Shown: positions 1 through 45,054 of the stretch, piece by piece
How positions within the stretch are numbered: the stretch's first letter is position 1
Layout: each line of letters opens with the position of its first letter
DNA from: Acidimicrobiales bacterium
GTDB lineage: Bacteria > Actinomycetota > Acidimicrobiia > Acidimicrobiales > GCA-2861595
NCBI GenBank assembly: GCA_035536185.1
Contig: DATLOM010000018.1
Span: 7,865 to 71,864, forward strand
Length of the DNA: 64,000 bases
Direction: 5' to 3'
Made by a program: the position numbers and the translations under genes
The notes under the pieces: generated by a model
Databases searched by the model: none
What the model saw: the letters and a program-made list of their open reading frames with translations, nothing else
What the model was told of the DNA's origin: nothing

Positions 1-396
1 GAGCGGGGGTCCCTGCCCGAACGACAGCTCAACGGCGTGGCCATCGGGATCTGCCAGCATCGCCCAGTAGCCCAGGGGCGGCGGCTGATCTATTGGCCCC
101 ATGCTGAGAAGGCCCGCCTTCTGCGCCTCCTCGGCGCGACGGACGAGCTCTTCTTTGCTGGAGAACGCGATGCCGAGGTGGAAGTTCCCGGAGATCGGCT
201 GCACGTTGGCAGACTGGATTAGCGACAGCCGAAACCCACGGTCCTGGTCGGTCATCACACCGCTCTTGGTGCCCATGACGACCACCGGCTCGCCTACCAC
301 CTCCATCGATGCCCACCGCTTGTAGAACTCTATGCTGTTGTCCACGTTGCTGACCGGAAGGGCCATGTGGGTGAAACGAACCGACGCTCCGGCCAC
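1..396 (-). CDS. VOC (glyoxalase/bleomycin-resistance/dioxygenase) family protein; 3' end runs off the window
   Basis: Absent from the ORF track because there is no stop inside the window. My minus-strand translation from GTG at 396 reads VAGASVRFTHMALPVSNVDNSIEFYKRWASMEVV...FHLGIAFSSKEELVRRAEEAQKAGLL...WAMLADPDGHAVELSFGQ. An in-frame TAG lies just upstream. It is clearly paralogous to the CDS at 2998-3426. The track ORF 29-604(-) is the wrong frame. Confidence 0.7.
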   Translation of the reverse strand, partial: MAGASVRFTHMALPVSNVDNSIEFYKRWASMEVVGEPVVVMGTKSGVMTDQDRGFRLSLIQSANVQPISGNFHLGIAFSSKEELVRRAEEAQKAGLLSMGPIDQPPPLGYWAMLADPDGHAVELSFGQGPPL

Positions 397-438
397 GGCG
401 GGAACCCCTTTCGCTAGTAGGAAGGTCGACCGACCCTA

Positions 439-1449
439 ATGCAGAGCTTCGGTCCCTGTCAAAGTCGGTCGAAGCTGGTCCTTCTCGGAACTGCCGGGGG
501 GCCATGGCCGGCGAGGTCCCGGGCTGGCCCGGCGCAGGCCATGGTGGTGAACGAACGTGTCTACCTGGTCGACTGCGGCAGTGGCGTCGCCCGCCAGCTG
601 GCACGCTGCGGCCTGCTGCTGCGCCTCCACCAGGTGTTCGTCACCCACCTCCACTCGGACCACGCCTGTGACTTCTTCAACCTGTTCCTACTTTCCTGGC
701 CGTACCTGCAACACCGGGCGACGGCGGTCGAGGCTTGGGGACCTGGCCCCGCCGGCGGCCCGTCGGCCCTGCCGTCCGAGGACCCCGGTGACAGGCCGGT
801 GCCACTCGTCTCCCCGTCGAACCCGTGCCCGGGGCTCGTTAGCATGACCAACTCGCAGGTGGAGGCCCACGCCTACGACATCAACGTGCGGACCCGAGAG
901 GCGGGGCGGGCCGAGCTGTCAACGCTCATGGCGTTGCACGAGATCGCCATCCCAGACCACGTCGGCGCCAACCCGCCGGAGCAGGTAGCTCCTCCGATGG
1001 AGCCCTTCTTGGTGGCGGAGGACGACGCCGTGCGGGTGACCGCCATCTTGGTAGAACACCCCCCGGTGTTCCCAGCCTTCGCCTATCGCTTCGACACCGA
1101 GAGCGGGTCGGTGGTCATGTCAGGCGACACCGCGCCCTGCACCAACCTGCTCCGGCTGGCGCGCGGCGCCGACATCCTCGTCCACGAAGTCGTCGACGAC
1201 GACTTCATGCGCGAGCGTGCCGGGCCGTCGCCCCGGTCGCAGGCTTCCCTGCGACACGTGCTCCGCTCCCATACCTCGGTGCACGACGTTGGAACGGTGG
1301 CCGCGCAGGCAGGGGTGCGCACCCTCGTGCTGACCCACTTCATTCCGTCAGTCGATGGCATACCGGACGAGCACTGGTCGGCATGCGCCCGAGCAGGGTT
1401 CGATGGCAGGGTAGTCGTCGGCCGCGACCTCCTGGAGATCGAGTTGTGA
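439..1449 (+). CDS. MBL-fold metallo-hydrolase
   Basis: Has the HxHxDH metal motif (VFVTHLHSDHACDF). The N-terminus KLVLLGTAGGPWP and the segment VYLVDCGSGV are typical of the RNase Z/MBL fold. A late His occurs in LVLTHFIP. Confidence 0.85.
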   Translation: MQSFGPCQSRSKLVLLGTAGGPWPARSRAGPAQAMVVNERVYLVDCGSGVARQLARCGLLLRLHQVFVTHLHSDHACDFFNLFLLSWPYLQHRATAVEAWGPGPAGGPSALPSEDPGDRPVPLVSPSNPCPGLVSMTNSQVEAHAYDINVRTREAGRAELSTLMALHEIAIPDHVGANPPEQVAPPMEPFLVAEDDAVRVTAILVEHPPVFPAFAYRFDTESGSVVMSGDTAPCTNLLRLARGADILVHEVVDDDFMRERAGPSPRSQASLRHVLRSHTSVHDVGTVAAQAGVRTLVLTHFIPSVDGIPDEHWSACARAGFDGRVVVGRDLLEIEL

Positions 1450-1466
1450 GCCGGCGGGGCGCTCCC

Positions 1467-2960
1467 ATGGCACGCCCACCTGCCAACCTGGCGGCGGCCA
1501 TGGAGGCAACTGCGGAGGCCGCGGGATGGGGCGAGTCCGCCGCATTCGTTGCGGGCGGGCGGGTACTCACGCACGCCGAAGTACACGCTGGGGGGGCTCG
1601 GGCCGCGTCGCTGCTGGCCGATCTCGGGGTGGGCCAGGGCGATCGAGTCCTCCTCGCCCTGCTCGACGGCGTCGAGTTCGTCCTGGCCTTCCTCGGCGCC
1701 GTCCGCCTCGGGGCCATCGCCGTCCCTGTCAACCCCCGCCTCACCACCAACGACCACCACTACATGATTCAAGACTCCTCCGCTGCGCTGGCGGTGTGCG
1801 AGGCGCACCTCGCCGAGCGCTTCAGCCCCTCGGCGGCGGTGATCGCCGCCGAGGAGCTGGCGGCGGGGTTGGCCGGTTGCATGCCCCACCCGCCTGCCTC
1901 GGTGGACGCCTCCTCGCCCGCCTACGCGCAGTACACCTCGGGCACGACGGGCGCTCCCAAGGCAGCGGTGCACCGGCACAGCGATCCCCTCGTGTACTTC
2001 GACGCCTTCGCGGCGGGGGCCCTGGGTCTGGCTACCGACGACGTCATCCTGTCGATCTCGAAGCTGTACTTCGCCTACGGGCTGGGCAACTCGTTGTTCT
2101 TCCCGCTTTTGGGCGGGGCACGGGCGGTCCTCCACGCCGGCGTGGCCATGCCTGACGAGATCTCTCGACTCGTCGAGGCGCATGCGGTCAGCGTGCTGTT
2201 CAGCGTACCTACCCTTTACGCTCGCCTCGCCACGTCCGGTCGGCCCTCGAGCTTCGTCTCGCTGAGGGCGGCCGTCTCCGCAGGAGAGTCACTTACGGTT
2301 GCGCTAGCCCGCCGCGCCCAAGACTTCCTCGGATGCCCCGTCATAGACGGGCTCGGGTCGACTGAGGTCGGCCATACCTTCGTGAGCAACACGATCGAGC
2401 ACAGCCGAACGGGGAGCGTCGGTTTGCCTCTACCGCCCTATGAGGTGGCTGTGCGAGACAGCCGGGGCAGGAACCTGCCCGCCGAACGGGTGGGGACGCT
2501 GTGGGTACGCGGGCCGACGGTGCTGCTGGAGTATCTCGGCAGGCCAGAGGCCGCCTCCGAGATCCTCGCGCAGGGATGGTTGTGCACCGGAGACCTGGCG
2601 GCAACTGACAGCGACGGGTTCGTCCACCTTCACGGACGCGCCGACGACATCGAGATGGTGGCCGGCATCAGCGTCGCGCCGCGGGAGATCGAGGAGCTGC
2701 TCGCCGGCCACGATGCGGTTTCGGAGGTCGCGGTAGCGGCCGTCCGCAAGCCGGACGGCGCCTCCCGGCTCGAGGCCTTCGTCGTCGTTGCGCCAGGTGA
2801 ATCGCCGGGCGATTGGCTCGCTGCTCAACTGGTCAGCCTTGCTCGCGCCCACCTGGCGCCACACAAGGTGCCTCAGGCGATCCGCCTAGTGGGCGATCTG
2901 CCGAGGACTTCGACCGGCAAGCTCCGCCGCTTCGTCCTCCGCTCTGGCTGGAGGGGCTGA
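1467..2960 (+). CDS. Aryl-CoA ligase, benzoate/4-hydroxybenzoate-CoA ligase-like (AMP-forming)
   Basis: ANL-superfamily motifs are present: YTSGTTGAPKAAVHRH, GWLCTGDLAATDSDGFVHLHGRADDIEMVAGISVAPREIEE and PRTSTGKLRRF. The N-terminal block GDRVLLALLDGVEFVLAFLGAVRLGAIAVPVNPRL...YMIQDS is typical of the benzoate-CoA ligase subgroup. I chose the ATG at 1467 (MARPPANL) rather than the track start 1383, which overlaps the previous gene. Confidence 0.85.
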   Translation: MARPPANLAAAMEATAEAAGWGESAAFVAGGRVLTHAEVHAGGARAASLLADLGVGQGDRVLLALLDGVEFVLAFLGAVRLGAIAVPVNPRLTTNDHHYMIQDSSAALAVCEAHLAERFSPSAAVIAAEELAAGLAGCMPHPPASVDASSPAYAQYTSGTTGAPKAAVHRHSDPLVYFDAFAAGALGLATDDVILSISKLYFAYGLGNSLFFPLLGGARAVLHAGVAMPDEISRLVEAHAVSVLFSVPTLYARLATSGRPSSFVSLRAAVSAGESLTVALARRAQDFLGCPVIDGLGSTEVGHTFVSNTIEHSRTGSVGLPLPPYEVAVRDSRGRNLPAERVGTLWVRGPTVLLEYLGRPEAASEILAQGWLCTGDLAATDSDGFVHLHGRADDIEMVAGISVAPREIEELLAGHDAVSEVAVAAVRKPDGASRLEAFVVVAPGESPGDWLAAQLVSLARAHLAPHKVPQAIRLVGDLPRTSTGKLRRFVLRSGWRG

Positions 2961-2997
2961 AACGCTTGTTGCCGCGGCAAGCCTCGGTTTCGTCGTG

Positions 2998-3426
2998 CTA
3001 TCCGTGGTAGAACTCCACCTGGTGGCCGTCCGGATCCGAGATGAAGGCGGAGAGGCCAAGGGGGCCCGGTCGTGCCTCGGAGTCAAGCGTCCGAAAGCCC
3101 TCACTCGCCGCAGCTTCAGCCACGGTGGTGACCTGTTCGTCACTGTCCAGGCTCACGCCTATGTGCCCCGTCCCTGCCAGCGGCACCACGTCCCGGCTCT
3201 TGACGAGCATGAGTGCGAAAGAGCCGGATTTGTCCGTGAGCCTGACCATCGAGCCGTCCTCTACCGGGTGGCTCAGGCCCGGCTCGATCTCCAGCGAGGC
3301 CCAGCGCTGGTAGAACTCGGTGCTGCGCTTCAGGTCCGTGACCGGTAGCGCCAAATGCGTGATCCTGGAAGTGCCGCTGGCCACGGGAGAACCCTTTCGT
3401 CGCGTGATGAAGACGCCGGTTACCAT
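2998..3426 (-). CDS. VOC (glyoxalase/dioxygenase) family protein
   Basis: Reads SRITHLALPVTDLKRSTEFYQRWASLEIE...GHIGVSLDSDEQV...FISDPDGHQVEFYHG. Paralog of the partial CDS at 1-396. The start is taken at the internal ATG (MVTGVF); the track start 3498 is an upstream extension. Confidence 0.8.
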   Translation of the reverse strand: MVTGVFITRRKGSPVASGTSRITHLALPVTDLKRSTEFYQRWASLEIEPGLSHPVEDGSMVRLTDKSGSFALMLVKSRDVVPLAGTGHIGVSLDSDEQVTTVAEAAASEGFRTLDSEARPGPLGLSAFISDPDGHQVEFYHG

Positions 3427-3571
3427 AGGACCCACGCTCCGCGGTGTCAAGGCTGCCTCCCGCCCGGCGCCTGCTTGCGGGCAGTCAGCTTGATCCACCT
3501 AGGCGACGCGAAGGAGGTCCGAGTCACGTGCCCACGTCCGGGCACGTGAGCATCGTGGAGGGAGTGGTGAG

Positions 3572-4684
3572 GTGACCGGTGGAGCGCCGGCGGTCGTGTG
3601 GGTGCTTGGCATGCACCGGGGCGGCACCTCGATGGTGACGCGCCTTCTGAACTTGCTCGGCGTGCCGGTCTGCCGCCACGACGACCTGTTCAACCCCGCG
3701 GTTGATCCGTACAACCCAACGGGCCATTGGGAAAGCCGAACCATGCTGTTGCTGAACGAGCAACTGCTCGCCATGATGGGGGCGCACTGGGCATTCCCGC
3801 CTGTGCTCCCGTCGAACTGGGAGCACCGCCCCGACATGGCTCAAATGGCGCCGGAGGCGGCCGACGCCGTGCGCAAGGTCCACCCGACGACCACGTGGTT
3901 GTGCAAGGACCCGCGACTGTGCCTGACCTTGCCGTTCTGGCTCGCCGCCTTGGAACCGGCGCCCCTAGTGGTGCTGGTGAGCCGCCACCCGGTCGACGTG
4001 GCGCACTCGCTCGAGGCACGCGAGGGTTTCTCGCTCGAGCACGGCCTGGCGGCGTGGGAGCGCTACCTGCGCTCCGCTATCGCCGCGACTGCAGGCCTGC
4101 GTGTCCACGTCGTTCGCTACGAGGACGCGCTCACCGACCCGCTCTCCTGGTCTTGGCGGCTCCAGGTTTGGCTCGCCAAATACGGCGTGTCGGCACGGAT
4201 GCCTAGGAACGAGGATATCGAAGCCTTCGTCAACCCGCTCCTGTGCCACAGCAGCAGTGAGGACGCCGAGATGGCCGGCCATCCTGTCGTCTCGACCGAG
4301 CAGCGGGCGCTGCACCGCCTGATCGAGGCCAAGGCGGGCGGACATGACCATTTCACGGTGGCCGATACCGGCAGAGAGACACCCAACACTGACGCCGTCC
4401 TCGCTCGGGTGGCGCTCACGCCTCCCCAGCGCCTGCGTACCCCGCGAGGCATTCTTGACACTGGCGGCGTTGCGCGCCGCCTCGGCCTGGCCATGTCCCA
4501 AGTCAACGTCCTTCACGACGGAGGTGAGCTCCCTCGCGGGTACTCTCATCCCGCGCTTGGGTTTCCCGTATGGGATGAGCCGGTCATCGACCAGTGGGCG
4601 TCTCAGCATGCCGGTTTGCTCACCGAGTTGGTTGCCGACCACGGGCGCGGTGGCGCCCCTACGCCTCCGCTTTCGACCGGATGA
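3572..4684 (+). CDS. Sulfotransferase family protein (Stf0-like) with a C-terminal HTH-like extension
   Basis: Has the PAPS 5'-phosphosulfate-binding loop VVWVLGMHRGGTSMVTRLL and the downstream VVRYEDALTDP block. GTG start is preceded by GGAGGGAG. The C-terminal ~90 aa (ILDTGGVARRLGLAMSQVNVLHDGGELPRGY...PVWDEPVIDQWA) looks like an excisionase/MerR-type HTH. Confidence 0.75.
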   Translation: MTGGAPAVVWVLGMHRGGTSMVTRLLNLLGVPVCRHDDLFNPAVDPYNPTGHWESRTMLLLNEQLLAMMGAHWAFPPVLPSNWEHRPDMAQMAPEAADAVRKVHPTTTWLCKDPRLCLTLPFWLAALEPAPLVVLVSRHPVDVAHSLEAREGFSLEHGLAAWERYLRSAIAATAGLRVHVVRYEDALTDPLSWSWRLQVWLAKYGVSARMPRNEDIEAFVNPLLCHSSSEDAEMAGHPVVSTEQRALHRLIEAKAGGHDHFTVADTGRETPNTDAVLARVALTPPQRLRTPRGILDTGGVARRLGLAMSQVNVLHDGGELPRGYSHPALGFPVWDEPVIDQWASQHAGLLTELVADHGRGGAPTPPLSTG

Positions 4685-4910
4685 ACTGCGCCAGGCAGAA
4701 GATCGAGTTGAAGTGCTCGGCGGTGAGCTCCTCGTCGAGGATCTGCACTCCGAACTCTGTCTCCATGAAGCCAACGAGGTTCACGATGCCGAGCGAGTCG
4801 AGCACCTGACCGTCCAGGAGGGCGCGCCCGTCCGTCAGCTCTGCTGCTGACCAGCCGTCCCGCTCCATCTCTTCGGCGATGAACGCCCGCAGCTTTCCCT
4901 CGACCGTCAC
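4659..4910 (-). CDS. Acyl carrier protein (stand-alone)
   Basis: Has the phosphopantetheine-attachment motif LDGQVLDSLGIVNLVGFMETEFG. GTG start at 4910 (VTVEGKLRAFIAEEM). Only the last 83 codons of track ORF 4659-5270 are used. It lies directly downstream of the GT1 gene on the same strand. Confidence 0.8.
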   Translation of the reverse strand: MTVEGKLRAFIAEEMERDGWSAAELTDGRALLDGQVLDSLGIVNLVGFMETEFGVQILDEELTAEHFNSIFCLAQFIRSKAEA

Positions 4911-4951
4911 GCGCCTGCTCCTCGTGGCCTCAGATGCTCGCTCAACAACGG

Positions 4952-6187
4952 TCAAAACCTGGGAAAGGACATGGTAGATGTCACGGGCGCCCTTTCGCGT
5001 GCCAACCGCTCGAGGAGCCCTACGGCGGCATCGGGGCCCGGCATGGCTTCGATCTCGTCCTTCAGGCGAAGGGCATTGAGCCGGTAGACCGGATCGGACA
5101 ACAAGATGGCAGCCTCCTCGCGTACGGCTGACGCGGTTACTTGCGGCGGCGCGAGGAACCGTCCTGCGCCGATTGACCGCACCCGGAGCGCGTTGACGAA
5201 ATTGTCGGCCGCCTGGGGCAGCACGAGCATCGGAACACCGTGGCTCAGGGCCGCCATCATGCTGCCCCATCCGCCGTGGGTGACAAGCACGTCGCAGCCA
5301 GGTAGGACAACGTCAAAGGGTGCCCATGGAGCGAACCTCATGTCGGCAGACGGTGCCACATCGCCCGTAGTGCCGTTGCCAAGACCCACGACCAAGGAGC
5401 GGCCGACGCCTGAAAGGCCGTCCACAATGGCGCTAATGACGTCTGTTGCATCGTTGAAGACTGTTCCCAGGCTCACCAGGAGCCTCGGGCCGGGGCCTGC
5501 GAACCCGTCCTCCGAGAACGAGCCGCCGCCCAGAGCTGGAACACTGAAGTGCACCGGACGCAACGGATGGGCGGTGCCGAGGGGGTTCTGAGCCGCCAAC
5601 AAATGGAGGCTGGGTGGCACGAGATCCAGGTCCAGATAACGCAGCGCGGGAAATGCCTCTCCACGTGGGTCAAACGTCCTGAGCCCCAGCTCGCTACGAA
5701 AGGTGTTCAGCGCTGACCACTCCGGCTTCTCGGTGGAGCCTCCACCTCCCGGGGCATGGCTCCGTCCGAGCGCGGCTGGAATGAAGTTGCGAAGCAGGAC
5801 GTACGGAGTGTCAGTCATCTCCGCCGCAAGCAAACCCCCTAGCTCGAAGAGTGTGAAGAGGAGAAGGTCCGGGCGCCAAGACTCAATCAGGGTTAGCAGA
5901 TCCGGCACCATGGCGCGGGGCGCAACCTCGTTGAAAATCCGCATGAGTTCGGCCGCCCGTGCCCTCGGGCTGCCCATATCGACGCCCGGTGATACCAGCT
6001 CGGGGCGGCTCTCGACCCAGTCGAGCCCCGCCCGTTCCACACTGAGACCGGCGCGCTCCACAGTAGGGGCGAACGACGCGCTGGTGGCCACTCGGACCTC
6101 GTGGCCGGACTGGCCCAACGCACGGGCCAGCGGGACCACGGGGTGGAAATGGCCGTGCCCCGGTATCACCGTCATCAGCACCCGCAC
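4952..6187 (-). CDS. Glycosyltransferase family 1 (MGT/UDP-glycosyltransferase type)
   Basis: The N-terminus MRVLMTVIPGHGHFHPVVPLARALGQSGHEV and the C-terminal nucleotide-sugar motif VLVTHGGWGSMMAALSHGVPMLVLPQAADNF match this family. Confidence 0.85.
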   Translation of the reverse strand: MRVLMTVIPGHGHFHPVVPLARALGQSGHEVRVATSASFAPTVERAGLSVERAGLDWVESRPELVSPGVDMGSPRARAAELMRIFNEVAPRAMVPDLLTLIESWRPDLLLFTLFELGGLLAAEMTDTPYVLLRNFIPAALGRSHAPGGGGSTEKPEWSALNTFRSELGLRTFDPRGEAFPALRYLDLDLVPPSLHLLAAQNPLGTAHPLRPVHFSVPALGGGSFSEDGFAGPGPRLLVSLGTVFNDATDVISAIVDGLSGVGRSLVVGLGNGTTGDVAPSADMRFAPWAPFDVVLPGCDVLVTHGGWGSMMAALSHGVPMLVLPQAADNFVNALRVRSIGAGRFLAPPQVTASAVREEAAILLSDPVYRLNALRLKDEIEAMPGPDAAVGLLERLARERAPVTSTMSFPRF

Positions 6188-6247
6188 AGAGCAAGGTTAG
6201 ACGTCTCGGGTGCACAAGCGGTCGAGGCCGGGTAAGGTCAGCGCGGC

Positions 6248-7990: not shown

Positions 7991-7991
7991 C

Positions 7992-8819: not shown

Positions 8820-8946
8820 CTCGACCTCCTGTCGCAGGCCGCCGCCGACCTCGATTCCACACACCGCCACCACTTCGACTCTACGCCGTGGCGCGCGGTT
8901 GGAGGAATTATCCTGCCCCGTGGCCGAGGACAAGGGCTGAGGCGGC

Positions 8947-10116: not shown

Positions 10117-10128
10117 CAATCGACGTAT

Positions 10129-11043
10129 TCAGCGTCCGGGGGCTAAGCGGGCAGAGCTCTCAACGAAGCCAAGTGCAGGTGTCGGCACGGAGCCCAAGTA
10201 CGTAGGGGTTTTGGCCGGCTTGTGAAACGGACGGCCCCGAATCCGCTCGTACTGGTCCCGGAACTCGGTCATCTCGAGCATCAAGTTGTGCGAGAGCGGG
10301 CGGTGAAACTGGTGGAAGGAGCCTTCACCCATGAGCACTATCAACTCGGTGCGCGGCAGGTCGCACACCCGCGCGTAGGTGTCGAGATTCAGAAACCCAC
10401 CTCTCGGCAGGTCGAACCGGACCTCGTAGCCACCCATCTCGTCGAATAGCCGGCGTGGGAGAAAGAGACATGGGCTTTCACTCAGCGGCGAGAACCAGCC
10501 TCCGGAGTTCGCTGGCGCTAAGGCGGCGATCTCGAAGAGCCGATAGCCGTCGGTTGGCCAGGCGATGGACTGCAGGAGGGTATCCTCGCTGCGCTGGTCG
10601 TACCCCTTGGCACTCGAACGTGACTGCACGTCAGGGCCGAGGTGCCATCCAAGGGTGGTCACGATGGGCCGCTCGTAGAGCCGCAGCGCCGAAAGAGCGT
10701 GAAGCACGACACCTGGGGTCACCATGCGGGCCCCGTCCAAGATGACACCGACATGCTCAGCAGCCGCGAGAGCGACGCCGAGGTTCACCGCTGCAGCGGG
10801 GGACGGGCTTGCCTCACTCACGTAGTGGTAGCGGATATTGGGCGCAATGGCTCTGATCTCTTCGGGATCGAGACGCTCGGACGAGCCATTGTCGACGACG
10901 ACCACCTCGTAGGCGTCTTCCTCCACACCTCGCTGGTATGCCGGCGACAGCGACACCAAGGTGCGAGGCAGCTCCCTTCGCATGTTGTAGGCCACAACCA
11001 CTATGGACAACGACGGGCGCACGGAGGGACCGTAGTCGGGCAT
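10129..11043 (-). CDS. Glycosyltransferase family 2
   Basis: Reads LSIVVVAYNMRRELPRTLVSLS...YEVVVVDNGSSE...GVILDGAR (GT-A fold, DxD-like). Start taken at ATG 11043 (MPDYGPSV). The longer track ORF would overlap the upstream small gene. Confidence 0.8.
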   Translation of the reverse strand: MPDYGPSVRPSLSIVVVAYNMRRELPRTLVSLSPAYQRGVEEDAYEVVVVDNGSSERLDPEEIRAIAPNIRYHYVSEASPSPAAAVNLGVALAAAEHVGVILDGARMVTPGVVLHALSALRLYERPIVTTLGWHLGPDVQSRSSAKGYDQRSEDTLLQSIAWPTDGYRLFEIAALAPANSGGWFSPLSESPCLFLPRRLFDEMGGYEVRFDLPRGGFLNLDTYARVCDLPRTELIVLMGEGSFHQFHRPLSHNLMLEMTEFRDQYERIRGRPFHKPAKTPTYLGSVPTPALGFVESSARLAPGR

Positions 11044-11108
11044 GGGCGGCGGCGAGGCAAGTCTCGGTACTCGAGACCGCTGCCGCGCAGAACTGTGCCG
11101 GTCTCGGT

Positions 11109-11363
11109 CTACGCCGGTGGGTGCTGCGGCTTCTTTCGACAGTCCGGCAACGAGAAGGTCGTCTCTGGGGCGACCATCCACCCAGGCAGAGACTTCACCA
11201 GCTCGAGCAACCGCCGCTCTTCGTACTCCACCAGCATCATCCGCGGAGACTCGCCGAGGAGGATCATTCCTGGTAGTTGGCGCACCCTTTCTGCATCAGC
11301 CGCGGGCTTGGCTCCCTCGCCCTCGTAGCGCAGCACGAGGCGCACCCTTGCCGATGATGCCAC
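11109..11363 (-). CDS. Small hypothetical protein (84 aa), possibly a propeptide/I9-like domain
   Basis: Abuts the stop of the S8 peptidase gene (11364) on the same strand. High GC3. The segment MILLGESPRMMLVEYEERRLLELVKSLPGWMVAPETTFSLP resembles the peptidase N-terminal segment RVVDSLGDDGAKLVEATPESALAIRAMQPGLQVVPLAYYS. Confidence 0.5.
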   Translation of the reverse strand: MASSARVRLVLRYEGEGAKPAADAERVRQLPGMILLGESPRMMLVEYEERRLLELVKSLPGWMVAPETTFSLPDCRKKPQHPPA

Positions 11364-12869
11364 CTATGCCGGCTGCGGCAGCCCGTGTCCCTCGAAGCCC
11401 GCACCGAGGCCACGCAGCTTCGCCGAGGCGTAGAGCGCCTTCAACAGCGCCTCGGAACGGGCGGCGTCACGTGGCGTCTTCAGGATTTCGGATGACGCGA
11501 GGACGTCGGCAGCGGCGCCGGTCACGGCCGGGCACGCCATCGACGTCCCACTGATCTCGGTATAGCTGCCGGGGACGGTCGAGATGATGGCCACGCCCGG
11601 CCCGGTGAGGTCGATCTGTGGGCCGATGTTGGAGAAGGCGCCGATGAACTCGGCCTTGTCCGTGGCAAAGGGCGGTGCCACATCCTCCGCCTCGGCGGTG
11701 CCCTTGGGGAACGTGCCCTTACGGCCCAGCGCGGAGACCGCAACTGCCGTGGGTTCGGATGCGGGGAAGCCCACCAGGCCTCTGTCGCCGTTGCCGGCGG
11801 CGATGATGCACAGACTTCCCTTCTTTCTGGCATCCTGCACTGCCGCCCTCAGTGTCGGGTCGGGCATGCCGGACAGCGCGCCGAGACTCATGTTGATGAG
11901 GTCGCAGCGGTCGGCCACGGCGAGGTCTATGGCCTTGGCAATGGCGAAGCTGTCGGCGGAGTTGCTCCCCTTTGCGAAGACCCGGTACGAGCGGAGCGTC
12001 ACTCCGGGGGCCACGCCCCTTATTCCCGTGGGGGGCGTTCCTCGTGCCGCCACGATGCCGGCCACGTGGGTGCCGTGGTGCTTGCCGTTGTCCCCGTAGT
12101 CTTCGGGGTCCTCGCCCGCCACCGTGTTCGCTCCGCCGGATACCGCAAGGTCGGGATGGTCGGCCACGCCAGAGTCGATCACGGCCACCGTCACACCGGC
12201 TCCCGCGTCGTCGGCCGGGTGCCCGTAGTAGTGACGGAGGGCGTCGGTGTAGGCGAGGTCGATCGGCTGCAACTCGATGGTAGTGCCTGTCTTCACCGGA
12301 GCCTTCAGCTTGCGCAGCGTCCAAAAGGCGTTGGTCGGGTACACGTACAACCTGTCCAGAGTGACGCTCGCTCGGCCCAGCGCCAGGCTCACCTCGCCCT
12401 TGGCGTCGGAAACTCCCTGGGCGCCCACCCCCGCGGCAAAGTCGGTGAAGGCAACCACTATGGCGCCATCCACGACGGTCTTGTCCTTCTTCGACACGAG
12501 GGTCAATGTCACGGTAGCTGCCGTCCCCGAGGCGCGGCGGGGCGTCATCGGCTCCCTTATCTCGTGGCGCACCATGGCGTAGGAGTAATAGGCGAGCGGG
12601 ACGACCTGAAGACCTGGCTGCATGGCCCGGATGGCAAGCGCGGACTCCGGTGTGGCTTCCACGAGCTTGGCCCCGTCATCGCCCAGGGAGTCCACCACCC
12701 GTAGCGGGACGCGGTGCCCCTGGGTCAAGGTCACCTGGCGTGATGTAGCCACCGGTGCCCCCAACTCCTGCAGGAACGCCTTGGCTCCCGCAGTGGCCGT
12801 CCGTCCCTTGACGCGCAACCCCTCCGGAGGCAGGACGACATACCGATCTGTGCCTGATGCTCGAGCCAT
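11364..12869 (-). CDS. S8 (subtilisin) family serine peptidase, no signal peptide
   Basis: Catalytic triad blocks VAVIDSGVADHPDL (Asp), HGTHVAGIVAARG (His) and SGTSMACPAVTGAAA (Ser). The N-terminus MARASGTDRYVVLPPEG has no hydrophobic signal sequence. Confidence 0.9.
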   Translation of the reverse strand: MARASGTDRYVVLPPEGLRVKGRTATAGAKAFLQELGAPVATSRQVTLTQGHRVPLRVVDSLGDDGAKLVEATPESALAIRAMQPGLQVVPLAYYSYAMVRHEIREPMTPRRASGTAATVTLTLVSKKDKTVVDGAIVVAFTDFAAGVGAQGVSDAKGEVSLALGRASVTLDRLYVYPTNAFWTLRKLKAPVKTGTTIELQPIDLAYTDALRHYYGHPADDAGAGVTVAVIDSGVADHPDLAVSGGANTVAGEDPEDYGDNGKHHGTHVAGIVAARGTPPTGIRGVAPGVTLRSYRVFAKGSNSADSFAIAKAIDLAVADRCDLINMSLGALSGMPDPTLRAAVQDARKKGSLCIIAAGNGDRGLVGFPASEPTAVAVSALGRKGTFPKGTAEAEDVAPPFATDKAEFIGAFSNIGPQIDLTGPGVAIISTVPGSYTEISGTSMACPAVTGAAADVLASSEILKTPRDAARSEALLKALYASAKLRGLGAGFEGHGLPQPA

Positions 12870-12965
12870 CGTGTCCCCTGTCTGTGCCTGTCAAGAATTC
12901 GAAGTTCGGATTCTCGCACGCGCTGGTCGCCAATGCCAGGAGCAACCTGATAGGCCGGAGCGCGC
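12870..12965. promoter_or_regulatory. Divergent promoter region between the S8 peptidase and GT1 genes
   Basis: This is the most AT-rich stretch of the cluster (TGTCAAGAATTCGAAGTTCGGATTCTCGCAC). It carries overlapping GAATTC/TTCGAA/GAAGTTC half-palindromes between two divergent starts. No -10/-35 assignment attempted. Confidence 0.3.
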
Positions 12966-14237
12966 ATGCGAGTCCTGTGCACCTGCCTTCCCGAGTTCGG
13001 CCACTTCCACCCGCTCGTGCCGGTGGCACAAGCGCTCGAGAACGCCGGCCACACCGTCGCCTTCGCCACGGCAGGCGAGTTCTGCGAGCGCATCGAACGC
13101 GCTGGCTTCGACGCCTTCCCCGCCGGTTTGTCCTTTCACCAGCAGATGGATGAGGCGCGGCGGTGCTACCCCCAGGAGGCGGCACTCCCACCAGGCCCGG
13201 ATCGCTTCGCCTCCTTCGTGCCGAGGATGCTCGCCGGCGTGGCGGCGCCCGCCCGGGCGAAGGACCTGTTGGCCATCGTCAGCGGGTTCCGTCCCGACGT
13301 CGTACTGCACGGCGAAGCAGAGTTCGGAGGTCCGCTCGTAGCCGAGCTGGCAGGTCTGCCATATGTTGGTCAGAGCCTGTCGGTCCTGCGACCTCTCGAG
13401 ATGGCACGTCTCGCCGGCGACACCCTCGCCCGTGCCTGTCGGGATCGTGGGTGGAACATCGACGTGGGCCCCTTTGGAGGACTCTACCGCTACCTCTACC
13501 TCGACGTCTGTCCTCCTGGTCTCCAGTCGGCGGAGATCAGCGCAGTGGCCGTAGCCCATCGAGCCGACGCGGAGGGCAAGCCTCTGGCGCAGCGCTCGGC
13601 ATCTTCGGGCGATACGAGGAAGTCTCGTGACCATCCTTACGACGGCACTGAGGGCGAGGCGCCTCCAGCCTGGGTGAAGGAGCTGGACGACCGCCCGACC
13701 ATCTATGTCACACTGGGCACGATCAATGACGACCCCGCCCTCTACCGAGTCATCCTCGACGGGCTGCGGGATGAGCCGGTGAACGTGGTGGTCACCGTCG
13801 GCGGCACAGGGGACCCGGCCAGCCTCGACCCAGGTTTGCCGAACGTCTACGTCGAGCGCTACATCCCCCAGTCGTTGCTCCTCCCCCACTGCAGCATCGT
13901 GGTCAACCATGCCGGTTCGATCCTGCCCCCGCTGGGCCACGCGCTGCCGATGCTGATGGTTCCCGGGAAGGGCAACGAGTTCCACAATGCAGAGGCGTGC
14001 ATGAGGGCGGGCATCGGACGCGTGGTGGCACGTCAGGAGGCGACGGCGGAGACCGTTCGTCGGGAAGTGCGGATCCTCCTGGAGGACGAGTCCTATCGGA
14101 ACCTGAGCAGGAACGTCGCTTCTGAGATCGCAGCCATGCCGGGCGCCGAACACGCGGCACGGCTAGTGGAGCGCCTCGCGGAAGACGGACGCCCGGCGGC
14201 CGGTGATCCGGCCGTCACCGGCTCCCCGACGTCATGA
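12966..14237 (+). CDS. Glycosyltransferase family 1 (MGT type)
   Basis: The N-terminus MRVLCTCLPEFGHFHPLVPVAQALENAGHTV and the C-terminal IVVNHAGSILPPLGHALPMLMVPGKGNEFHNA match the family. Its stop overlaps the next start (ATGA at 14234-14237). Confidence 0.85.
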   Translation: MRVLCTCLPEFGHFHPLVPVAQALENAGHTVAFATAGEFCERIERAGFDAFPAGLSFHQQMDEARRCYPQEAALPPGPDRFASFVPRMLAGVAAPARAKDLLAIVSGFRPDVVLHGEAEFGGPLVAELAGLPYVGQSLSVLRPLEMARLAGDTLARACRDRGWNIDVGPFGGLYRYLYLDVCPPGLQSAEISAVAVAHRADAEGKPLAQRSASSGDTRKSRDHPYDGTEGEAPPAWVKELDDRPTIYVTLGTINDDPALYRVILDGLRDEPVNVVVTVGGTGDPASLDPGLPNVYVERYIPQSLLLPHCSIVVNHAGSILPPLGHALPMLMVPGKGNEFHNAEACMRAGIGRVVARQEATAETVRREVRILLEDESYRNLSRNVASEIAAMPGAEHAARLVERLAEDGRPAAGDPAVTGSPTS

Positions 14238-15346
14238 GGGTGCCGCAGTTCAGGCCGTGGGTCGGCGAGGACGAGCACGACGCCACCCGGGCATGTTTCG
14301 AGACGGGATGGTTGGGCGAGGGGCCGTTCGCGGCACAGTTCCAGGCGGCGTTGTTGAACCTGATCACGGCTCGCTTCGGCGTGTTCGCTCCTAGCGGCAC
14401 CATGGCGCTCTACCTGGCGATGAGGGTCCTCGACATCGGGCCCGGGGACGAGGTCATCGTGCCGGACTTCACCTTCTTCTCGTCCGCCTCGTCGGTAGAG
14501 ATGACGGGTGCAGCACCCGTCTTCGTCGACGTCAACCGCCGTAACTTCCAAATCGACCTGTCACATGCAGACCGTCTGGTCAACGAACGGACCAAAGCCG
14601 TCATGCCCGTCCACGTCTACGGGACGGCGGCCGACATGGACGCCGTCATGGCCTTCGCCGGCCGCCACGGAATCTTGGTGATCGAGGACGCTGCCCAGGC
14701 TCTCGATGTGCGCTACCGCGGCCGCCACGCGGGCACGTTCGGCATCGCGGGCTGCTTCTCGTTCTTCCCGGACAAGACGATCACCACCGGCGAGGGCGGC
14801 TTCGTGGTGACCGACGACGAGGCCGTCTACGATCGCCTGGTCCAAGTGCGCAACCAGGGGCGTCGCTCCAGCGGCACCTACATTCACCCCGAGATCGGCT
14901 ACAACCTCCGGATAACCGACGTGCAGGCGGCGATCGGCCTCACGCAGCTGGCGAAGCTGGCGGAGATCAAACGCCGCAAGCTCCACGTGCTCGACCGCTA
15001 CAGGGAGCTGCTCGCGGGCACGGGCGTCACCTTCTTCAGCCCTGATGATCACGCCGAGTGGCTCCCGTTCCGGGTTGGGATCCTCCATCGCCTCGCCCAC
15101 GAGATGATCGAGTTCCTCTCGGACAAGGAGATCGAGGCTCGCACCTTTTTCTACCCGCTCCACCGCCAGCCGCCCTTCGCCCGCTTCGTCGGCTCAGGCG
15201 ACTTGGCGGAGGACTTCGCCAACTCGGACTACGGCTACGACAACGGTGTATGCCTACCGACGTTCCCCACCCTGACAAACATCCAGATCGAGTACGTGTG
15301 CGACGCCATCAGGGCATTCCTCGCCGGGCAAGACCAGGCGGTATGA
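14234..15346 (+). CDS. DegT/DnrJ/EryC1/StrS-family PLP-dependent sugar aminotransferase
   Basis: Reads FAPSGTMALYLAMRVLDIGPGDEVIVPDFTFFSS...AAPVFVDVN. The PLP-lysine block is FSFFPDKTITTGEGGFVVTDD. Confidence 0.9.
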   Translation: MRVPQFRPWVGEDEHDATRACFETGWLGEGPFAAQFQAALLNLITARFGVFAPSGTMALYLAMRVLDIGPGDEVIVPDFTFFSSASSVEMTGAAPVFVDVNRRNFQIDLSHADRLVNERTKAVMPVHVYGTAADMDAVMAFAGRHGILVIEDAAQALDVRYRGRHAGTFGIAGCFSFFPDKTITTGEGGFVVTDDEAVYDRLVQVRNQGRRSSGTYIHPEIGYNLRITDVQAAIGLTQLAKLAEIKRRKLHVLDRYRELLAGTGVTFFSPDDHAEWLPFRVGILHRLAHEMIEFLSDKEIEARTFFYPLHRQPPFARFVGSGDLAEDFANSDYGYDNGVCLPTFPTLTNIQIEYVCDAIRAFLAGQDQAV

Positions 15347-15362
15347 GGACCAACTGCGGTGC

Positions 15363-15929
15363 TTACGAGAAAATGGAGGTGGGGAACTTCTCCGTGACGA
15401 CCATGACGGGGCGCTGGCAGGAAACCACGCGGTAGGTCCTGACCAGCAGGCAGGCCGACGGGTCTATACCGAAGTAGTCGGCACAGCTCCCGGCGGGCTC
15501 CCGGCCCGATGCCAGCACCTCCTTCCACGTCTCCACCCTGGCGTCGGCGAGAAGCGGGCCGATGGCCTCATCCGTCTCCTGGAGGCCCTCCCTGACGGCT
15601 GGTGGGAGCCGGTCCCAGGCGACCAGCGCCTCGGCGTAGAGCCAGTTCGTGCCACTGCGCCTGCCTTGCAGGAGGATCGTTCTCCGTAGCAACGGCTGGT
15701 CATGACCGAGGTCGAGCTCTGGGCATCGACCGTGGCCCTGGTCCGACAGTTCGTGGACCAGCTTCACCACGCCGACGGGTTCGTCGGCATAGGCCTCGAT
15801 GATGCGGGTCACCGTTCCGTCCGTGGTCAGGAGCACCCTTGCCAAGGGCCCGGGATAAGCCTCGCGGCGTAGCTGGTCGTGGGCGCCCACGTAGCCGATG
15901 CTCGGGCACACGTCCTGGACCAGTGCCAT
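15363..15929 (-). CDS. Chorismate pyruvate-lyase-like protein (Chor_lyase/DUF98 family)
   Basis: Reads RVLLTTDGTVTRIIEAYADEPVGV...LLRRTILLQGRRSGTNWLYAEALVAWDRLPPAVREGLQETDEAIGPLL...ETWKE...RTYRVVSCQRPVMVVTEKFPTSIF. From memory this closely parallels the Rv2949c-type 4-hydroxybenzoate-forming enzyme. Not verified by alignment. Confidence 0.75.
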   Translation of the reverse strand: MALVQDVCPSIGYVGAHDQLRREAYPGPLARVLLTTDGTVTRIIEAYADEPVGVVKLVHELSDQGHGRCPELDLGHDQPLLRRTILLQGRRSGTNWLYAEALVAWDRLPPAVREGLQETDEAIGPLLADARVETWKEVLASGREPAGSCADYFGIDPSACLLVRTYRVVSCQRPVMVVTEKFPTSIFS

Positions 15930-15941
15930 GGTGCGCCGACG

Positions 15942-16655
15942 CTACCAGCCGGGACGACCCAGGACGGCAGCCGCAAGTTCCGGGCCCACCCACGCAGCGG
16001 TGAACACATGGCCGTCCGCTACGTCGAAGGCGCCCGGCAAAGTCGAGGCTGGGGAGCCGCCGCGTTTGACTGCATGGACGTCTGCGGCGAGTCTCGAGCC
16101 TCCGAGGTCCAAGTCGACCGCAATGTCGGTTAGCGCCACGAGCCGTCCTGTGGCGGAGAACAGGCACTTCACCATCGATTCCTTGGCGCTGAAGGAGATC
16201 TTGGTGGCGAAAGGGGTGAGGGGATGAGGGGTTCGCTCGACCTGGAGCTCGGCGGCAGTGTGAACCATCCGCTCGACTCCTTGCTCCAGGGGTGGCTCGA
16301 GTGGCTCGATGTCGACGCCGATGCCCGAGAAGTCCTCCGCTCGTGCCACGGCAGCAGCGGCCCAGGCGCCTCCGTGGGAGATGCTGCCTACAGATCCCGG
16401 CGGCCACAATGGCTCCCGGTTGGGGCCGATGGCGATTGGCCCTGAGTCGCATCCGAGGGCGCGCAGAGCCTCGTGCGCACACGCGCGGCCGGCGAGGAAC
16501 TCCCTCCGGCGCTTCGGGCCCGCGGTCGGAACCATGTCCCGCTCCTCGCTCCACAGGTGTGCCTCCTCCTGGCAACGCAGATCGCGCACGGCCACCACCA
16601 CGCCCGGAGGGAACAGCGCGTCGAGCACCTTGGCAACTTCTGCCGCGGTCGTCAT
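15942..16655 (-). CDS. 4'-phosphopantetheinyl transferase (EntD/Sfp superfamily)
   Basis: Reads FLAGRACAHEALRALG, GSISHGGAWAAAAVA, GIGVDIEPL and FSAKESMVKC. Start at ATG 16655 (MTTAAEVAKVL). The upstream 206 codons of track ORF 15942-17273 are antisense to the next gene and were rejected. Confidence 0.8.
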   Translation of the reverse strand: MTTAAEVAKVLDALFPPGVVVAVRDLRCQEEAHLWSEERDMVPTAGPKRRREFLAGRACAHEALRALGCDSGPIAIGPNREPLWPPGSVGSISHGGAWAAAAVARAEDFSGIGVDIEPLEPPLEQGVERMVHTAAELQVERTPHPLTPFATKISFSAKESMVKCLFSATGRLVALTDIAVDLDLGGSRLAADVHAVKRGGSPASTLPGAFDVADGHVFTAAWVGPELAAAVLGRPGW

Positions 16656-36330: not shown

Positions 36331-36391
36331 CGCTGTGACAGAAACGGGGATTCCGCCTTCCTGTCACAGCCCTCCTGTACAACTGCCTGTG

Positions 36392-44846: not shown

Positions 44847-45054
44847 GCTCTCCTTGCTCAGCGCATCCCCTGGCTCATCCTGACCGGCCAGTTCTAGACG
44901 ACGACGTGGGCGGGCCGAGTGGGCGGAGGCGGTGGTGGAGCAATGGCCCGACGAGTGCGACGCGTACCTCAGAGGCGCAGCGGAGAGGCGCCGCCGGACC
45001 ACGAGCAGCTCACTACCTTCGGACGGAGCCGGCACCGGGTTCTAGGCTCCGGGT

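Follow-up and report, generated by a model that had tools for sequence, protein, structure and literature searches.

A predicted PKS-free route to a sulfated hydroxybenzoate oligoglycoside in an uncultured Acidimicrobiales bacterium

Chorismate-lyase-fed loaders of 4-hydroxybenzoate (4-HBA) occur in the closthioamide, ambigol and bromophenol pathways, and AsbC/AsbD of the petrobactin pathway form a system of stand-alone aryl-acid ligase and aryl carrier protein. The p-HBAD and phenolic glycolipid pathway of M. tuberculosis makes glycosylated p-hydroxybenzoate (PMC10949201, PMC8957993), and CalG1, the calicheamicin 3-O-methyl-rhamnosyltransferase, completes the aryltetrasaccharide (PMC4760980). 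A 16.6-kb region from an Acidimicrobiales MAG (an uncultured bacterium) was compared with these systems. It was read as an orphan specialised-metabolite cluster in which a carrier-tethered hydroxybenzoate is predicted to become a sulfated oligoglycoside without a PKS, a reading held with about even confidence.

The region opens a window of 64 kb (the whole stretch of DNA analysed). Every gene listed for it in an earlier note, made from the letters of the DNA, was present at the same position or within a few codons of it, and the tight packing was verified: 96.8% of the region was coding, gaps between genes ranged from 0 to 127 nt, and the strand switched 11 times over 17 genes. G+C was 0.645-0.688 from position 1 to approximately 20 kb, compared with mostly 0.69-0.74 over most of the remaining window, and GC3 in this block was also below most of the rest, which suggests an acquired island. 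The earlier note had proposed a pathway joining 4-HBA formation, loading, glycosylation, an amino-sugar step and sulfation. Its lyase, loader, GT1 and sulfation logic held, while the FadD22 assignment, the Stf0 assignment and the amino-sugar did not, and the unity of a single pathway is less certain. As the note had supposed, no characterised equivalent of the cluster was found. Across the 64 kb there was no PKS-sized gene and no PKS domain, and the visible cluster lacked both an O-methyltransferase and a methyl-ester step. The cluster begins at base 1 of the window and its left end is missing, so the claim that it has neither methyltransferase nor PKS stands for the visible part and not for the cluster as a whole.

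The gene at 15363-15929 (minus strand) encodes an Rv2949c-like protein of the chorismate pyruvate-lyase family (PF01947, 53.9 bits, cut-off 22), and "chorismate pyruvate-lyase family protein" is also its NCBI (PGAP) name. The predicted model (pLDDT 73) was closest in fold to the DUF98 structure 2NWI (TM 0.81) and matched UbiC with a TM of about 0.5. With the roles of UbiC residues taken from PMC7879144, the Arg equivalent to UbiC Arg76 was invariant across the family alignment, and the Glu aligned to UbiC Glu155 was shifted by one column, leaving its equivalence ambiguous. The profile match, the fold and the invariant Arg bear out the proposal that this DUF98 protein belongs to Chor_lyase. Identity as a GntR/UTRA regulator was rejected on the PF01947 match above cut-off, the DUF98 fold and the lack of any GntR DNA-binding or wHTH domain in the protein; the grouping with UTRA/GntR effectors that the earlier note had named as a counter-case does not apply.

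The phosphopantetheinyl transferase (PPTase) gene (15942-16655, minus strand) is co-directional with the lyase gene and lies 12 nt upstream of it. Its product is of the Sfp/EntD/PptT type (PF17837, 80.9 bits, plus PF01648; NCBIfam scores: PptT 88, Npt 87 and EntD 71 bits), in agreement with the EntD-type enzyme listed beside the lyase. This pairing bears on whether the lyase could instead belong to primary metabolism, as a source of 4-HBA for a prenylquinone amid tailoring genes that are neighbours by coincidence. UbiC-type chorismate lyases do feed ubiquinone synthesis in proteobacteria, and a UbiE/COQ5-type methyltransferase is encoded at 44004-45035. However, Actinobacteria generally use menaquinone, the window has no UbiA prenyltransferase near the lyase, and the neighbours of the lyase are the PPTase gene here and, in sister loci, GT1c and loaders of carrier proteins, making a quinone role very improbable.

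Two adenylating enzymes and a free carrier protein were found. The stand-alone aryl-acid adenylating ligase (1467-2960, plus strand) matched NCBIfam FadD22 with 396.7 bits over profile positions 4-488. It scored 363.6 bits against the benzoate-CoA ligase family, under the cut-off of 375, and its PDB matches included the benzoate-CoA ligases 2V7B/4EAT (E 1e-79 to 1e-81). By sequence it is a homolog of the FadD22 A-domain and of benzoate-CoA ligases, and it is probably paired with the free ACP. That acyl/aryl carrier protein (4659-4910, minus strand; NCBIfam ACP families, E 4e-11 to 1e-6) is encoded downstream of GT1a, and its translation carries an LDSLG motif with the Ser and a DSL motif. The adenylation-PCP didomain (6248-7990, plus strand) consists of AMP-binding, AMP-binding_C and PP-binding domains, the last a canonical PCP with a GGHSL motif. 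Its A4 region, FLHAFPPGTNA, is without the amino-acid-binding Asp, and the predicted substrate is a non-amino-acid carboxylate. The didomain had been taken for the FadD22-like loader; that place goes by sequence to the stand-alone ligase, while the nearest families of the didomain are fatty-acyl/feruloyl-CoA-ligase-like enzymes.

These matches leave some room for a glycoside cluster built on an aromatic unit other than 4-HBA, either another chorismate-derived hydroxy- or aminobenzoate, or benzoate, cinnamate-type or fatty acids loaded by the ligases. The identity of the lyase to solved relatives was only about 18-25%, it had no curated equivalog match, and the Glu155 position is ambiguous as above. 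The ligase fell just under the benzoate-CoA ligase cut-off, anthranilate-CoA ligase was also a good match for it, and the didomain resembles fatty-acyl/feruloyl ligases. Such a substrate is nevertheless improbable: the PF01947 match is well over threshold and the ligase is matched best by FadD22, a p-hydroxybenzoate-AMP ligase. To our knowledge, few PF01947 members have been biochemically tested, and those few (Rv2949c and a cyanobacterial enzyme) are chorismate pyruvate-lyases.

The three GT1 paralogs and the GT2 that had been listed were all confirmed. All three GT1s belong to natural-product subfamilies (macrolide/aryl type), share 32-33% pairwise identity and have CalG1 as best PDB match: GT1a (4952-6187, minus strand; PF06722/PF00201/PF21036) with 131.6 bits, GT1b (8947-10116, plus strand; PF06722/PF21036/PF00201) with 106 bits, and GT1c (12966-14237, plus strand) with 153.8 bits over the full length (E 6.7e-44; next-best PDB match about 1e-23). 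GT1c is a candidate phenol O-glycosyltransferase. The GT2 (10129-11043, minus strand; PF00535, 35.1 bits) is soluble, is the last gene of the co-oriented run S8-small ORF-GT2, and was called as an ORF of 304 aa on a Logan contig.

The DegT/DnrJ/EryC1-type PLP aminotransferase (14234-15346, plus strand; PF01041, 344 bits) is encoded directly after GT1c, and the ATGA overlap behind its presumed translational coupling was verified. All scores against generic sugar-aminotransferase NCBIfam models were under their cut-offs. The amino-sugar step previously proposed had only this gene behind it and was not upheld, as no NDP-sugar dehydratase was found in the window and a class-III aminotransferase occupies the post-GT1c position in sister loci.

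Sulfation genes were present as claimed, although the family named for the sulfotransferase, Stf0, was wrong. The protein (3572-4684, plus strand) is a PAPS-type Sulfotransfer_3 enzyme (PF13469, 43.1 bits) with the motifs GMHRGGTS and RHPVDVAHS; it had no Stf0 Pfam match and no PDB match at E<=1. Its homologs are often fused to GT2/GT8/GT4 domains in glycan loci, which points to a sugar as its probable target. A stand-alone APS kinase, CysC (20938-21534, plus strand; PF01583, 207.6 bits), is the probable supply of PAPS. Its membership in the cluster is uncertain because the gene lies outside the low-GC3 block; in sister locus L028, a CysC ortholog (55%) is encoded directly upstream of a Sulfotransfer_3 gene, an independent instance of the pair.

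The accessory genes previously listed were likewise all present, although two of them changed in character. The two VOC/glyoxalase-fold proteins (1-435, minus strand, 3' end past the window start, PF00903 38.8 bits; and 2998-3498, minus strand, PF00903 41.9 bits, with weak NCBIfam matches only) are 41% identical to each other. The MBL-fold hydrolase (439-1449, plus strand; PF12706/PF00753) is RNase Z/AtsA-arylsulfatase-like, carries an HLHSDH motif and has the "arylsulfatase" 8GYG as best PDB match (E 1.9e-25); its RNase Z-type NCBIfam scores were under cut-offs. It is a candidate release hydrolase or aryl-sulfate esterase. The supposed α/β hydrolase (7992-8966, likely start 8819, minus strand; PF12146, 34.5 bits) lacks a Ser nucleophile: its elbow reads G-T-R-V-G, with Ser replaced by Arg in 17 of 17 homologs. 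The S8 subtilisin-family peptidase (11364-12869, minus strand; PF00082, 147 bits) has an intact D/H/S triad (DSG/HGTH/SGTSMA) and an extra N-terminal 220 aa. No signal peptide was seen in it by inspection, the peptidase is cytoplasmic, and its orthologs are 59-67% identical. The adjoining 84-aa ORF (11109-11363, minus strand) resembles a pro-like N-terminal region of the S8 protein, had no Pfam or NCBIfam match, was conserved along its entire length in four loci and was paired with the peptidase in all six metagenome loci. The two genes are an independent module, also found away from lyase genes in unrelated contexts.

Because of these contexts, and of the α/β-fold relatives in EPS-type loci, the 16.6 kb may be a mosaic instead of a single pathway. 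The region would then be a mosaic or cell-envelope glycan locus that places acyl or 4-hydroxybenzoyl groups and sulfate on a surface polysaccharide or glycolipid, with the S8 module inserted and with the GT2, sulfotransferase, CysC, Ser-less α/β-fold protein and A-PCP/ACP as decorators, as in exosortase-A-type EPS cassettes. The best NCBIfam match of the α/β-fold protein is TIGR03101 (exosortase-A-associated hydrolase 2), and the EPS-type loci that hold its homologs also carry genes for Wzz, Wzy_C, sortase, APS kinase, Sulfotransfer_3, AMP-ligases and ACPs. The nearest sulfotransferase relatives, with their glycosyltransferase fusions, lie in polysaccharide-type loci with ABC-2 exporters, and the frequent strand switches fit a patchwork. 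On the other hand, the window contained neither Wzx/Wzy/Wzz nor an ABC-2 exporter or a priming glycosyl-phosphate transferase, and no exporter for the product was obvious in it either; the GT1s are of natural-product type; and GT1c, a loader (ligase or didomain), MBL and VOC co-vary with the lyase and not with EPS genes. An envelope locus is therefore considered rather unlikely, though it is the strongest of the alternatives.

This covariation was seen in lyase loci of other Acidimicrobiia MAGs. Didomain orthologs (49-53% identical) adjoined the lyase in L006, L010 and L063, and in three sister loci the didomain was the only loader beside it. Ligase orthologs (57-60%) were found in L012 and L028, GT1c orthologs (41-50%) in L006, L011, L012, L028 and L063, MBL orthologs (55-57%) in L011, L021 and L063, VOC orthologs in L006, L011, L012, L021 and L029, and a PPTase ortholog (47%) in L006. 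The S8 gene and small ORF were also among the genes recurring beside the closest lyase homologs. The non-actinobacterial lyase loci examined held no ortholog of GT1c, of either loader, of MBL or VOC, or of the S8 pair. The lyase clade also adjoins unrelated genes, namely Opp-like transporters, haem peroxidases and a PKS/NRPS cluster. The association of the lyase with GT1c, a loader, MBL and VOC is beyond chance, and this recurrent neighbourhood speaks for a 4-HBA glycoside pathway that uses carrier proteins and no PKS.

In the proposed 4-HBA pathway, the lyase would convert chorismate to 4-HBA and pyruvate, as family membership and the conserved Arg suggest, and the PPTase would prime both carriers, the free ACP and the didomain's PCP. 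The FadD22-A/benzoate-CoA-ligase-like enzyme would adenylate 4-HBA and transfer it either to the free ACP, as a "split FadD22", or to CoA, and the didomain would load 4-HBA or a second aryl or acyl acid. GT1c would glycosylate the phenolic OH, and GT1a, GT1b and GT2 would extend the glycan, to which DegT might conceivably supply or create an amino group. The Sulfotransfer_3 enzyme, judged from the fusions and glycan contexts of its relatives, would sulfate a sugar using PAPS from the nearby CysC. Speculatively, the MBL-fold hydrolase could free the product from its carrier.

Among known systems, the exosortase-A-associated ligase/ACP/hydrolase-1/hydrolase-2 cassette (TIGR03098-03101) resembles the locus in that the α/β-fold protein matches hydrolase 2 with 87 bits and, in EPS-type loci, its homologs have ACPs, AMP-ligases and a second hydrolase as neighbours. 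The score is, however, under the cut-off of 202.75, Arg replaces the nucleophile Ser throughout the subfamily, and the window is without a hydrolase-1 partner, exosortase or EPS export genes. The ligase and aryl carrier systems share chorismate-derived 4-HBA or benzoate, a free-standing ligase and a small ACP, and the window ACP has a weak NCBIfam match to AsbD; their products are amides, thioamides and halogenated phenols rather than glycosides or sulfates, and no condensation, halogenase or thioamide genes occur in the window. For all three GT1s, and most of all for GT1c, the closest relative of solved structure is CalG1. Its acceptor, from the calicheamicin structure, is an aromatic thioester-linked unit, the same kind as proposed here, but its relatedness to GT1c is moderate and the window is without enediyne or orsellinate genes. 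The M. tuberculosis p-HBAD locus (Rv2949c, FadD22, Rv2962c, Rv2958c, Rv2957, O-methyltransferases and Pks15/1) likewise has a PF01947 chorismate pyruvate-lyase family protein, FadD22 (the best match of the aryl-acid adenylating enzyme here) and, by gene content, a carrier protein, several GT1s and one GT2. It differs in its A-ArCP FadD22, split here into ligase and free ACP beside a second, unrelated A-PCP didomain, and in having Pks15/1, O-methyltransferases and a methyl-ester step; the Acidimicrobiia locus adds a sulfotransferase, DegT, MBL, VOCs, the S8 module and the Ser-less α/β-fold protein. The p-hydroxybenzoate glycoside logic of mycobacteria would recur here in another lineage and with another set of genes.

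Pfam and NCBIfam scans confirmed every gene, with its coordinates, that the earlier note had listed in the block at window positions 1-16655. The block contained two VOC proteins (1-435 and 2998-3498, both on the minus strand), an MBL-fold protein (439-1449, plus strand), a stand-alone aryl-acid ligase (1467-2960, plus), a Sulfotransfer_3 protein (3572-4684, plus), a free ACP (4659-4910, minus), three GT1 glycosyltransferases, namely GT1a (4952-6187, minus), GT1b (8947-10116, plus) and GT1c (12966-14237, plus), an A-PCP didomain (6248-7990, plus), an α/β-fold protein (7992-8966, minus), a GT2 (10129-11043, minus), an 84-aa ORF, an S8 peptidase (11364-12869, minus), a DegT aminotransferase (14234-15346, plus), a PF01947 protein (15363-15929, minus; hereafter the lyase), and a PPTase (15942-16655, minus). 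An APS kinase (CysC, 20938-21534, plus) was located 4.3 kb beyond the PPTase. The coding share of the block was 96.8%: the GT1c and DegT genes overlap at an ATGA, the small ORF adjoins the S8 peptidase gene at 0 nt, and the PPTase and lyase genes are 12 nt apart. Window base 1 falls inside a gene, so the cluster is incomplete at its left end. The same DNA recurred in short (7-10 kb) Logan contigs of SRR8544467, with exact matches to the hydrolase and the lyase.

No PKS-sized gene or PKS domain was present among the ORFs scanned across the 64-kb window and no methyltransferase was present in 1-28 kb, as the earlier note had claimed for PKS genes and for intact cluster methyltransferases. Farther right, a truncated methyltransferase fragment (34878-35363) and a UbiE-like gene (44004-45035) were found. 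The window is rich in G+C. From window position 1 to approximately 20000 the G+C content was 0.645-0.688, versus mostly 0.69-0.74 over the remaining window, and GC3 was 0.70-0.88, versus 0.85-0.95 over most of the remaining window. This block of low G+C and GC3 suggests an acquired island and fits horizontal acquisition. The window contained no tRNA and no integrase, and Rfam revealed no RNA families in 1-30 kb.

Further genes lie to the right. A membrane-anchored 183-aa protein without a family match (16714-17265, plus) adjoins the PPTase; another Acidimicrobiales MAG has an ortholog (51%) of it, located 2 kb away from the lyase (L014, 7426-7968). Two kb beyond the PPTase lies the gene for an M28 peptidase (18598-20613, plus), whose N-terminal region is weakly HAD-like. 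CysC shares an ATGA overlap (ATG at 21531; both genes 20938-23747, plus) with the gene for a 738-743-aa protein without a family match. At its N-terminus this protein has a signal-like segment, and it also contains several hydrophobic stretches and linkers rich in Pro and Ala; next downstream are the genes for a GMC-type oxidoreductase (830 aa) and a metallophosphoesterase. Farther right, an AddAB/AdnAB-like helicase-nuclease pair with PD-(D/E)XK and UvrD domains (36242-42776, plus) signals an ordinary chromosomal setting beyond the cluster.

The 188-aa lyase matched PF01947 with 53.9 bits (cut-off 22) over profile positions 1-144 of 149 and no other family, which bears out its earlier assignment to Chor_lyase. 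PF01947 was also found in all 36 of its homologs, and the DUF98 structure 2NWI was its sole sequence match in the PDB. An AlphaFold (AF2) model (pLDDT 73) placed 2NWI first in Foldseek (TM 0.81). Next in the ranking, as a single shared fold would lead one to expect, were the UTRA effector domains found in GntR regulators (TM 0.5-0.65) and UbiC of E. coli (TM about 0.5). A GntR/UTRA regulator was considered and rejected: there was no UTRA match in Pfam, residues 1-34 of the model were disordered, no wHTH domain was present, and the best fold was DUF98. Grouping with UTRA/GntR, which the earlier note had named as speaking against its assignment, was therefore not seen in this protein without a DNA-binding domain. 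In an alignment with UbiC (reference sequence identical to 1G1B), the Arg76 column contained Arg in 21 of 21 family members, while the family-invariant Glu of the TEKFP motif fell one column off UbiC Glu155, a position that is ambiguous at approximately 20% identity. Arg76 and Glu155 of UbiC bind 4-hydroxybenzoate (PMC7879144). Membership of PF01947 is thus solid, and conversion of chorismate to 4-hydroxybenzoate (4-HBA) and pyruvate is the predicted activity.

The comparative context is the strongest evidence. Searching GTDB, with a single genome for each species, by means of a narrow lyase alignment yielded 53 loci, to which context look-ups added more. These sister loci were compared with all window proteins by tblastn and their other ORFs were examined by Pfam. 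A recurrent set of partners surrounded the lyase only in Acidimicrobiia/Actinomycetota MAGs: a GT1c ortholog (41-50%; L006, L011, L012, L028, L063), the A-PCP didomain (49-53%; L006, L010, L063), the FadD22-like ligase (57-60%; L012, L028), the MBL protein (55-57%; L011, L021, L063), a VOC protein (35-40% where aligned, in L011, L021 and L029; by Pfam only in L006 and L012), the PPTase (47%; L006), and the S8 peptidase and small ORF (58-65% and 43-47%, respectively; L010, L015, L021). More distant lyase homologs were found in other settings, e.g., a PKS/NRPS cluster or beside Opp-type transporters. The recurrent partners therefore place the window as one variant of a lyase-centred cluster family. 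GT1a, GT1b, GT2, DegT, the free ACP and a sulfotransferase of the window type occurred in no sister locus, and by gene content the window is an unusually glycosyltransferase-rich variant. Frequent extras of the sister loci that are absent from the window were a class II aaRS paralog, condensation domains, a class-III aminotransferase immediately behind GT1c, β-helix proteins and haem-peroxidase-like proteins. Animal-haem-peroxidase-like proteins adjoin the lyase in three Acidimicrobiia loci (L014, 8437-10038; L021, 8369-9835; L028, 10592-12262), which hints at oxidative phenol chemistry in the sister clusters.

Two enzymes could load 4-HBA. The best NCBIfam score of the ligase was to p-hydroxybenzoate-AMP ligase FadD22 (396.7 bits; equivalog cut-off 1228), a match spanning positions 4-488 of 705, i.e., the A domain without the ArCP. 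Its score to the benzoate-CoA ligase family TIGR02262 (363.6 bits) was narrowly below the cut-off of 375.25, and its best PDB relatives were benzoate- and anthranilate-CoA ligases. The free ACP (83 aa, DSL motif) is encoded 1.7 kb from the ligase, and together the two look like a split FadD22 that could functionally replace the fused enzyme. The didomain was 28% identical to the ligase, was nearest to fatty-acyl and feruloyl-CoA ligase families, and carried a canonical PCP motif (GGHSL) without the Asp with which amino-acid-activating domains bind the α-amino group. The label "FadD22-like loader" of the earlier note fits the architecture of the didomain, but by sequence the FadD22 homolog is the free ligase. 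Either the ligase or the didomain may be the 4-HBA loader.

The three GT1 paralogs were 32-33% identical to one another and fell in macrolide/natural-product GT subfamilies of NCBIfam with scores below cut-offs. CalG1 was the best solved relative of all three, and its match to GT1c was the strongest by far (E 6.7e-44, full length; next match about 1e-23). CalG1 attaches rhamnose to the phenolic OH of an aryl thioester, a lead that by analogy makes GT1c a good candidate phenol O-glycosyltransferase. In calicheamicin biosynthesis CalG1 completes the aryltetrasaccharide (PMC4760980). DegT was assigned by Pfam and NCBIfam as a generic sugar aminotransferase. No NDP-sugar dehydratase was found in the window and the sister loci carry the class-III enzyme in place of DegT, and an amino sugar in the product is therefore weakly supported.

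The sole Pfam match of the sulfotransferase was PF13469 Sulfotransfer_3 (43.1 bits; cut-off 27), and both PAPS-binding motifs were recognised by inspection (5'-PSB, GMHRGGTS; 3'-PB, RHPVDVAHS). The label "Stf0-like" had to be dropped: Stf0 (PF09037; PDB 1TEX) was not matched, and no PDB sequence matched at E<=1. Sulfation genes as such were upheld, as a PAPS-type Sulfotransfer_3 and an APS kinase are both present. Among 246 homologs many were fused to GT2, GT8 or GT4-type domains, and six fusions of approximately 600 aa (P0075, P0077, P0084, P0100, P0113, P0114) had GT2 as the C-terminal domain and, at the N-terminus, a Sulfotransfer_3 domain with 42% identity to the window protein. The window GT2 was unrelated to the GT2 half of these fusions. 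The nearest homologs on long contigs were found in glycan loci with more sulfotransferases, GTs, methyltransferases and an ABC-2 exporter. From these associations, the sulfotransferase most likely acts on a sugar. In L028 a CysC ortholog immediately precedes a Sulfotransfer_3 gene, which shares only the 3'-PB region with the window gene; a common origin was rejected, and sulfation was therefore recruited twice.

The remaining genes bear on an alternative that is sustained, in which part of the region is a surface-glycan decoration system or a mosaic. The MBL protein (HLHSDH motif) had the arylsulfatase 8GYG as its best PDB match (E 1.9e-25, two blocks) and also matched RNase Z families; by sequence it is classed as RNase Z/AtsA-like. 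AtsA-type MBL-fold arylsulfatases make up family S4, which is characterised by an HxHxDH motif (PMC5066984). The gene of the MBL protein was directly upstream of an adenylate-forming enzyme throughout: the ligase in the window, and a Pfam-confirmed class II (Asp/Asn/Lys-type) aaRS paralog of approximately 425 aa in L021 (2006-4272; genes overlapping by 4 nt) and L063 (7306-9868). L011 (1338-3931) has the same arrangement with an ORF of approximately 425 aa, the Pfam confirmation covering L021 and L063. The aaRS paralog also occurred in L006 and L012; amino-acid activation or self-resistance is a possible role.

The α/β-fold family comprised 35 proteins from metagenomes only, whose genes were always near AMP-ligase and ACP genes and, with a second hydrolase, belonged to EPS-type loci, a setting that favours surface-glycan decoration. 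The best family was exosortase-A-associated hydrolase 2 (TIGR03101; 87.2 bits, below the cut-off of 202.75). The window protein and 17 of 17 aligned homologs had a nucleophile elbow with Arg for Ser (G-T-R-[LVM]-G), and the alignment of these 17 homologs contained no invariant His.

A mosaic is favoured by the S8 peptidase and its small-ORF partner. The S8 peptidase has an intact triad and no signal peptide. It was conserved at 59-67%, and a protein of approximately 81-84 aa directly followed it in the window (11109-12869, minus) and in L010, L015, L021 and L064-L069. The pair was kept in six of six further metagenome loci, there beside unrelated genes, and its genomes ranged from 52 to 72% G+C with β-helix proteins, CtaA/NAD kinase/UbiA or an M28 peptidase as neighbours. 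The pair is probably an autonomous module. The 84-aa ORF resembles the N-terminal pro-like region of S8 and is conserved along its whole length, which argued against a RiPP system of S8 protease, GT2 and 84-aa precursor, as did the occurrence of the pair elsewhere without GTs. In L068 (3387-5741) an M28/PA/TFR-type peptidase lies approximately 1.5 kb downstream of the pair. A more distant S8 relative (45%; L070) lies near a phage-sheath-like gene, and no small ORF was detected there. Against this alternative as a whole, genes for polymerising or exporting polysaccharides were absent from the window, and its GT1s are of small-molecule type.

Overall, the cluster family is coherent, conserved, uncharacterised and from an uncultured lineage, and its product is predicted only. 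We give an even chance to an orphan, PKS-free, carrier-protein-dependent 4-HBA glycoside pathway with sugar sulfation. The earlier prediction of a sulfated, amino-sugar-bearing 4-HBA glycoconjugate is thereby partly supported, with its FadD22 assignment, Stf0 identity and amino sugar corrected. More tentatively, and with the odds against it, the window may be the most elaborate member, yielding a sulfated, possibly aminated oligoglycoside, of an undescribed Acidimicrobiia family of such PKS-free pathways, whose core would combine the PF01947 lyase with an aryl loader and a GT resembling CalG1, plus the MBL and VOC proteins. Non-canonical transfer or processing might then be the role of the Ser-less α/β-fold protein and of the pair formed by the cytoplasmic S8 and its pro-peptide-like partner.

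MAGs contain a great many orphan clusters, of which this is one, and it gives no sign of a new biochemical principle. If the glycoside prediction holds, it would be a first defined specialised-metabolite pathway from the almost never cultured Acidimicrobiia, and it would offer testable substrates for the poorly understood GT-associated Sulfotransfer_3 subfamily, the ligase/ACP-linked Ser-less α/β-fold family and the RNase Z/AtsA-like MBL directly upstream of an adenylate-forming enzyme. Full-text literature searches revealed no equivalent cluster, in Acidimicrobiia or elsewhere, consistent with the earlier claim of an unrecognised pathway.

Among described systems, the p-HBAD/PGL locus of M. 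tuberculosis comes nearest in logic; there, 4-HBA is loaded on FadD22 and glycosylated by Rv2962c/Rv2958c, the p-HBAD products being p-hydroxybenzoate methyl-ester glycosides (PMC10949201, PMC8957993). Both have a lyase of the same family, an A domain like that of FadD22, carrier-protein chemistry and several GTs, the last matching at family level (three GT1 and one GT2 in the window). Mycobacterial FadD22 unites a benzoate-ligase-type A domain and an aryl carrier domain in one protein, whereas the FadD22-like A domain of the window has no ArCP and the didomain is another type of ligase. Pks15/1, which performs elongation in the PGL branch, had no counterpart among the ORFs scanned across the window, the left end of which is cut, and the O-methyltransferases and methyl ester had none in 1-28 kb. 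The window adds sulfation and other genes. The p-HBAD-like logic proposed earlier therefore stands for the lyase, A domain and GTs, but not for a fused FadD22, Pks15/1 or methyltransferases, so the window would work like the p-HBAD/PGL locus and is not a member of it. If the glycoside prediction holds, the chorismate-lyase/aryl-carrier/glycosyltransferase logic of the immunomodulatory p-HBADs would recur in other gene dress in environmental actinobacteria; were the wider Acidimicrobiia family also real, it would be an environmental counterpart to the mycobacterial p-HBADs.
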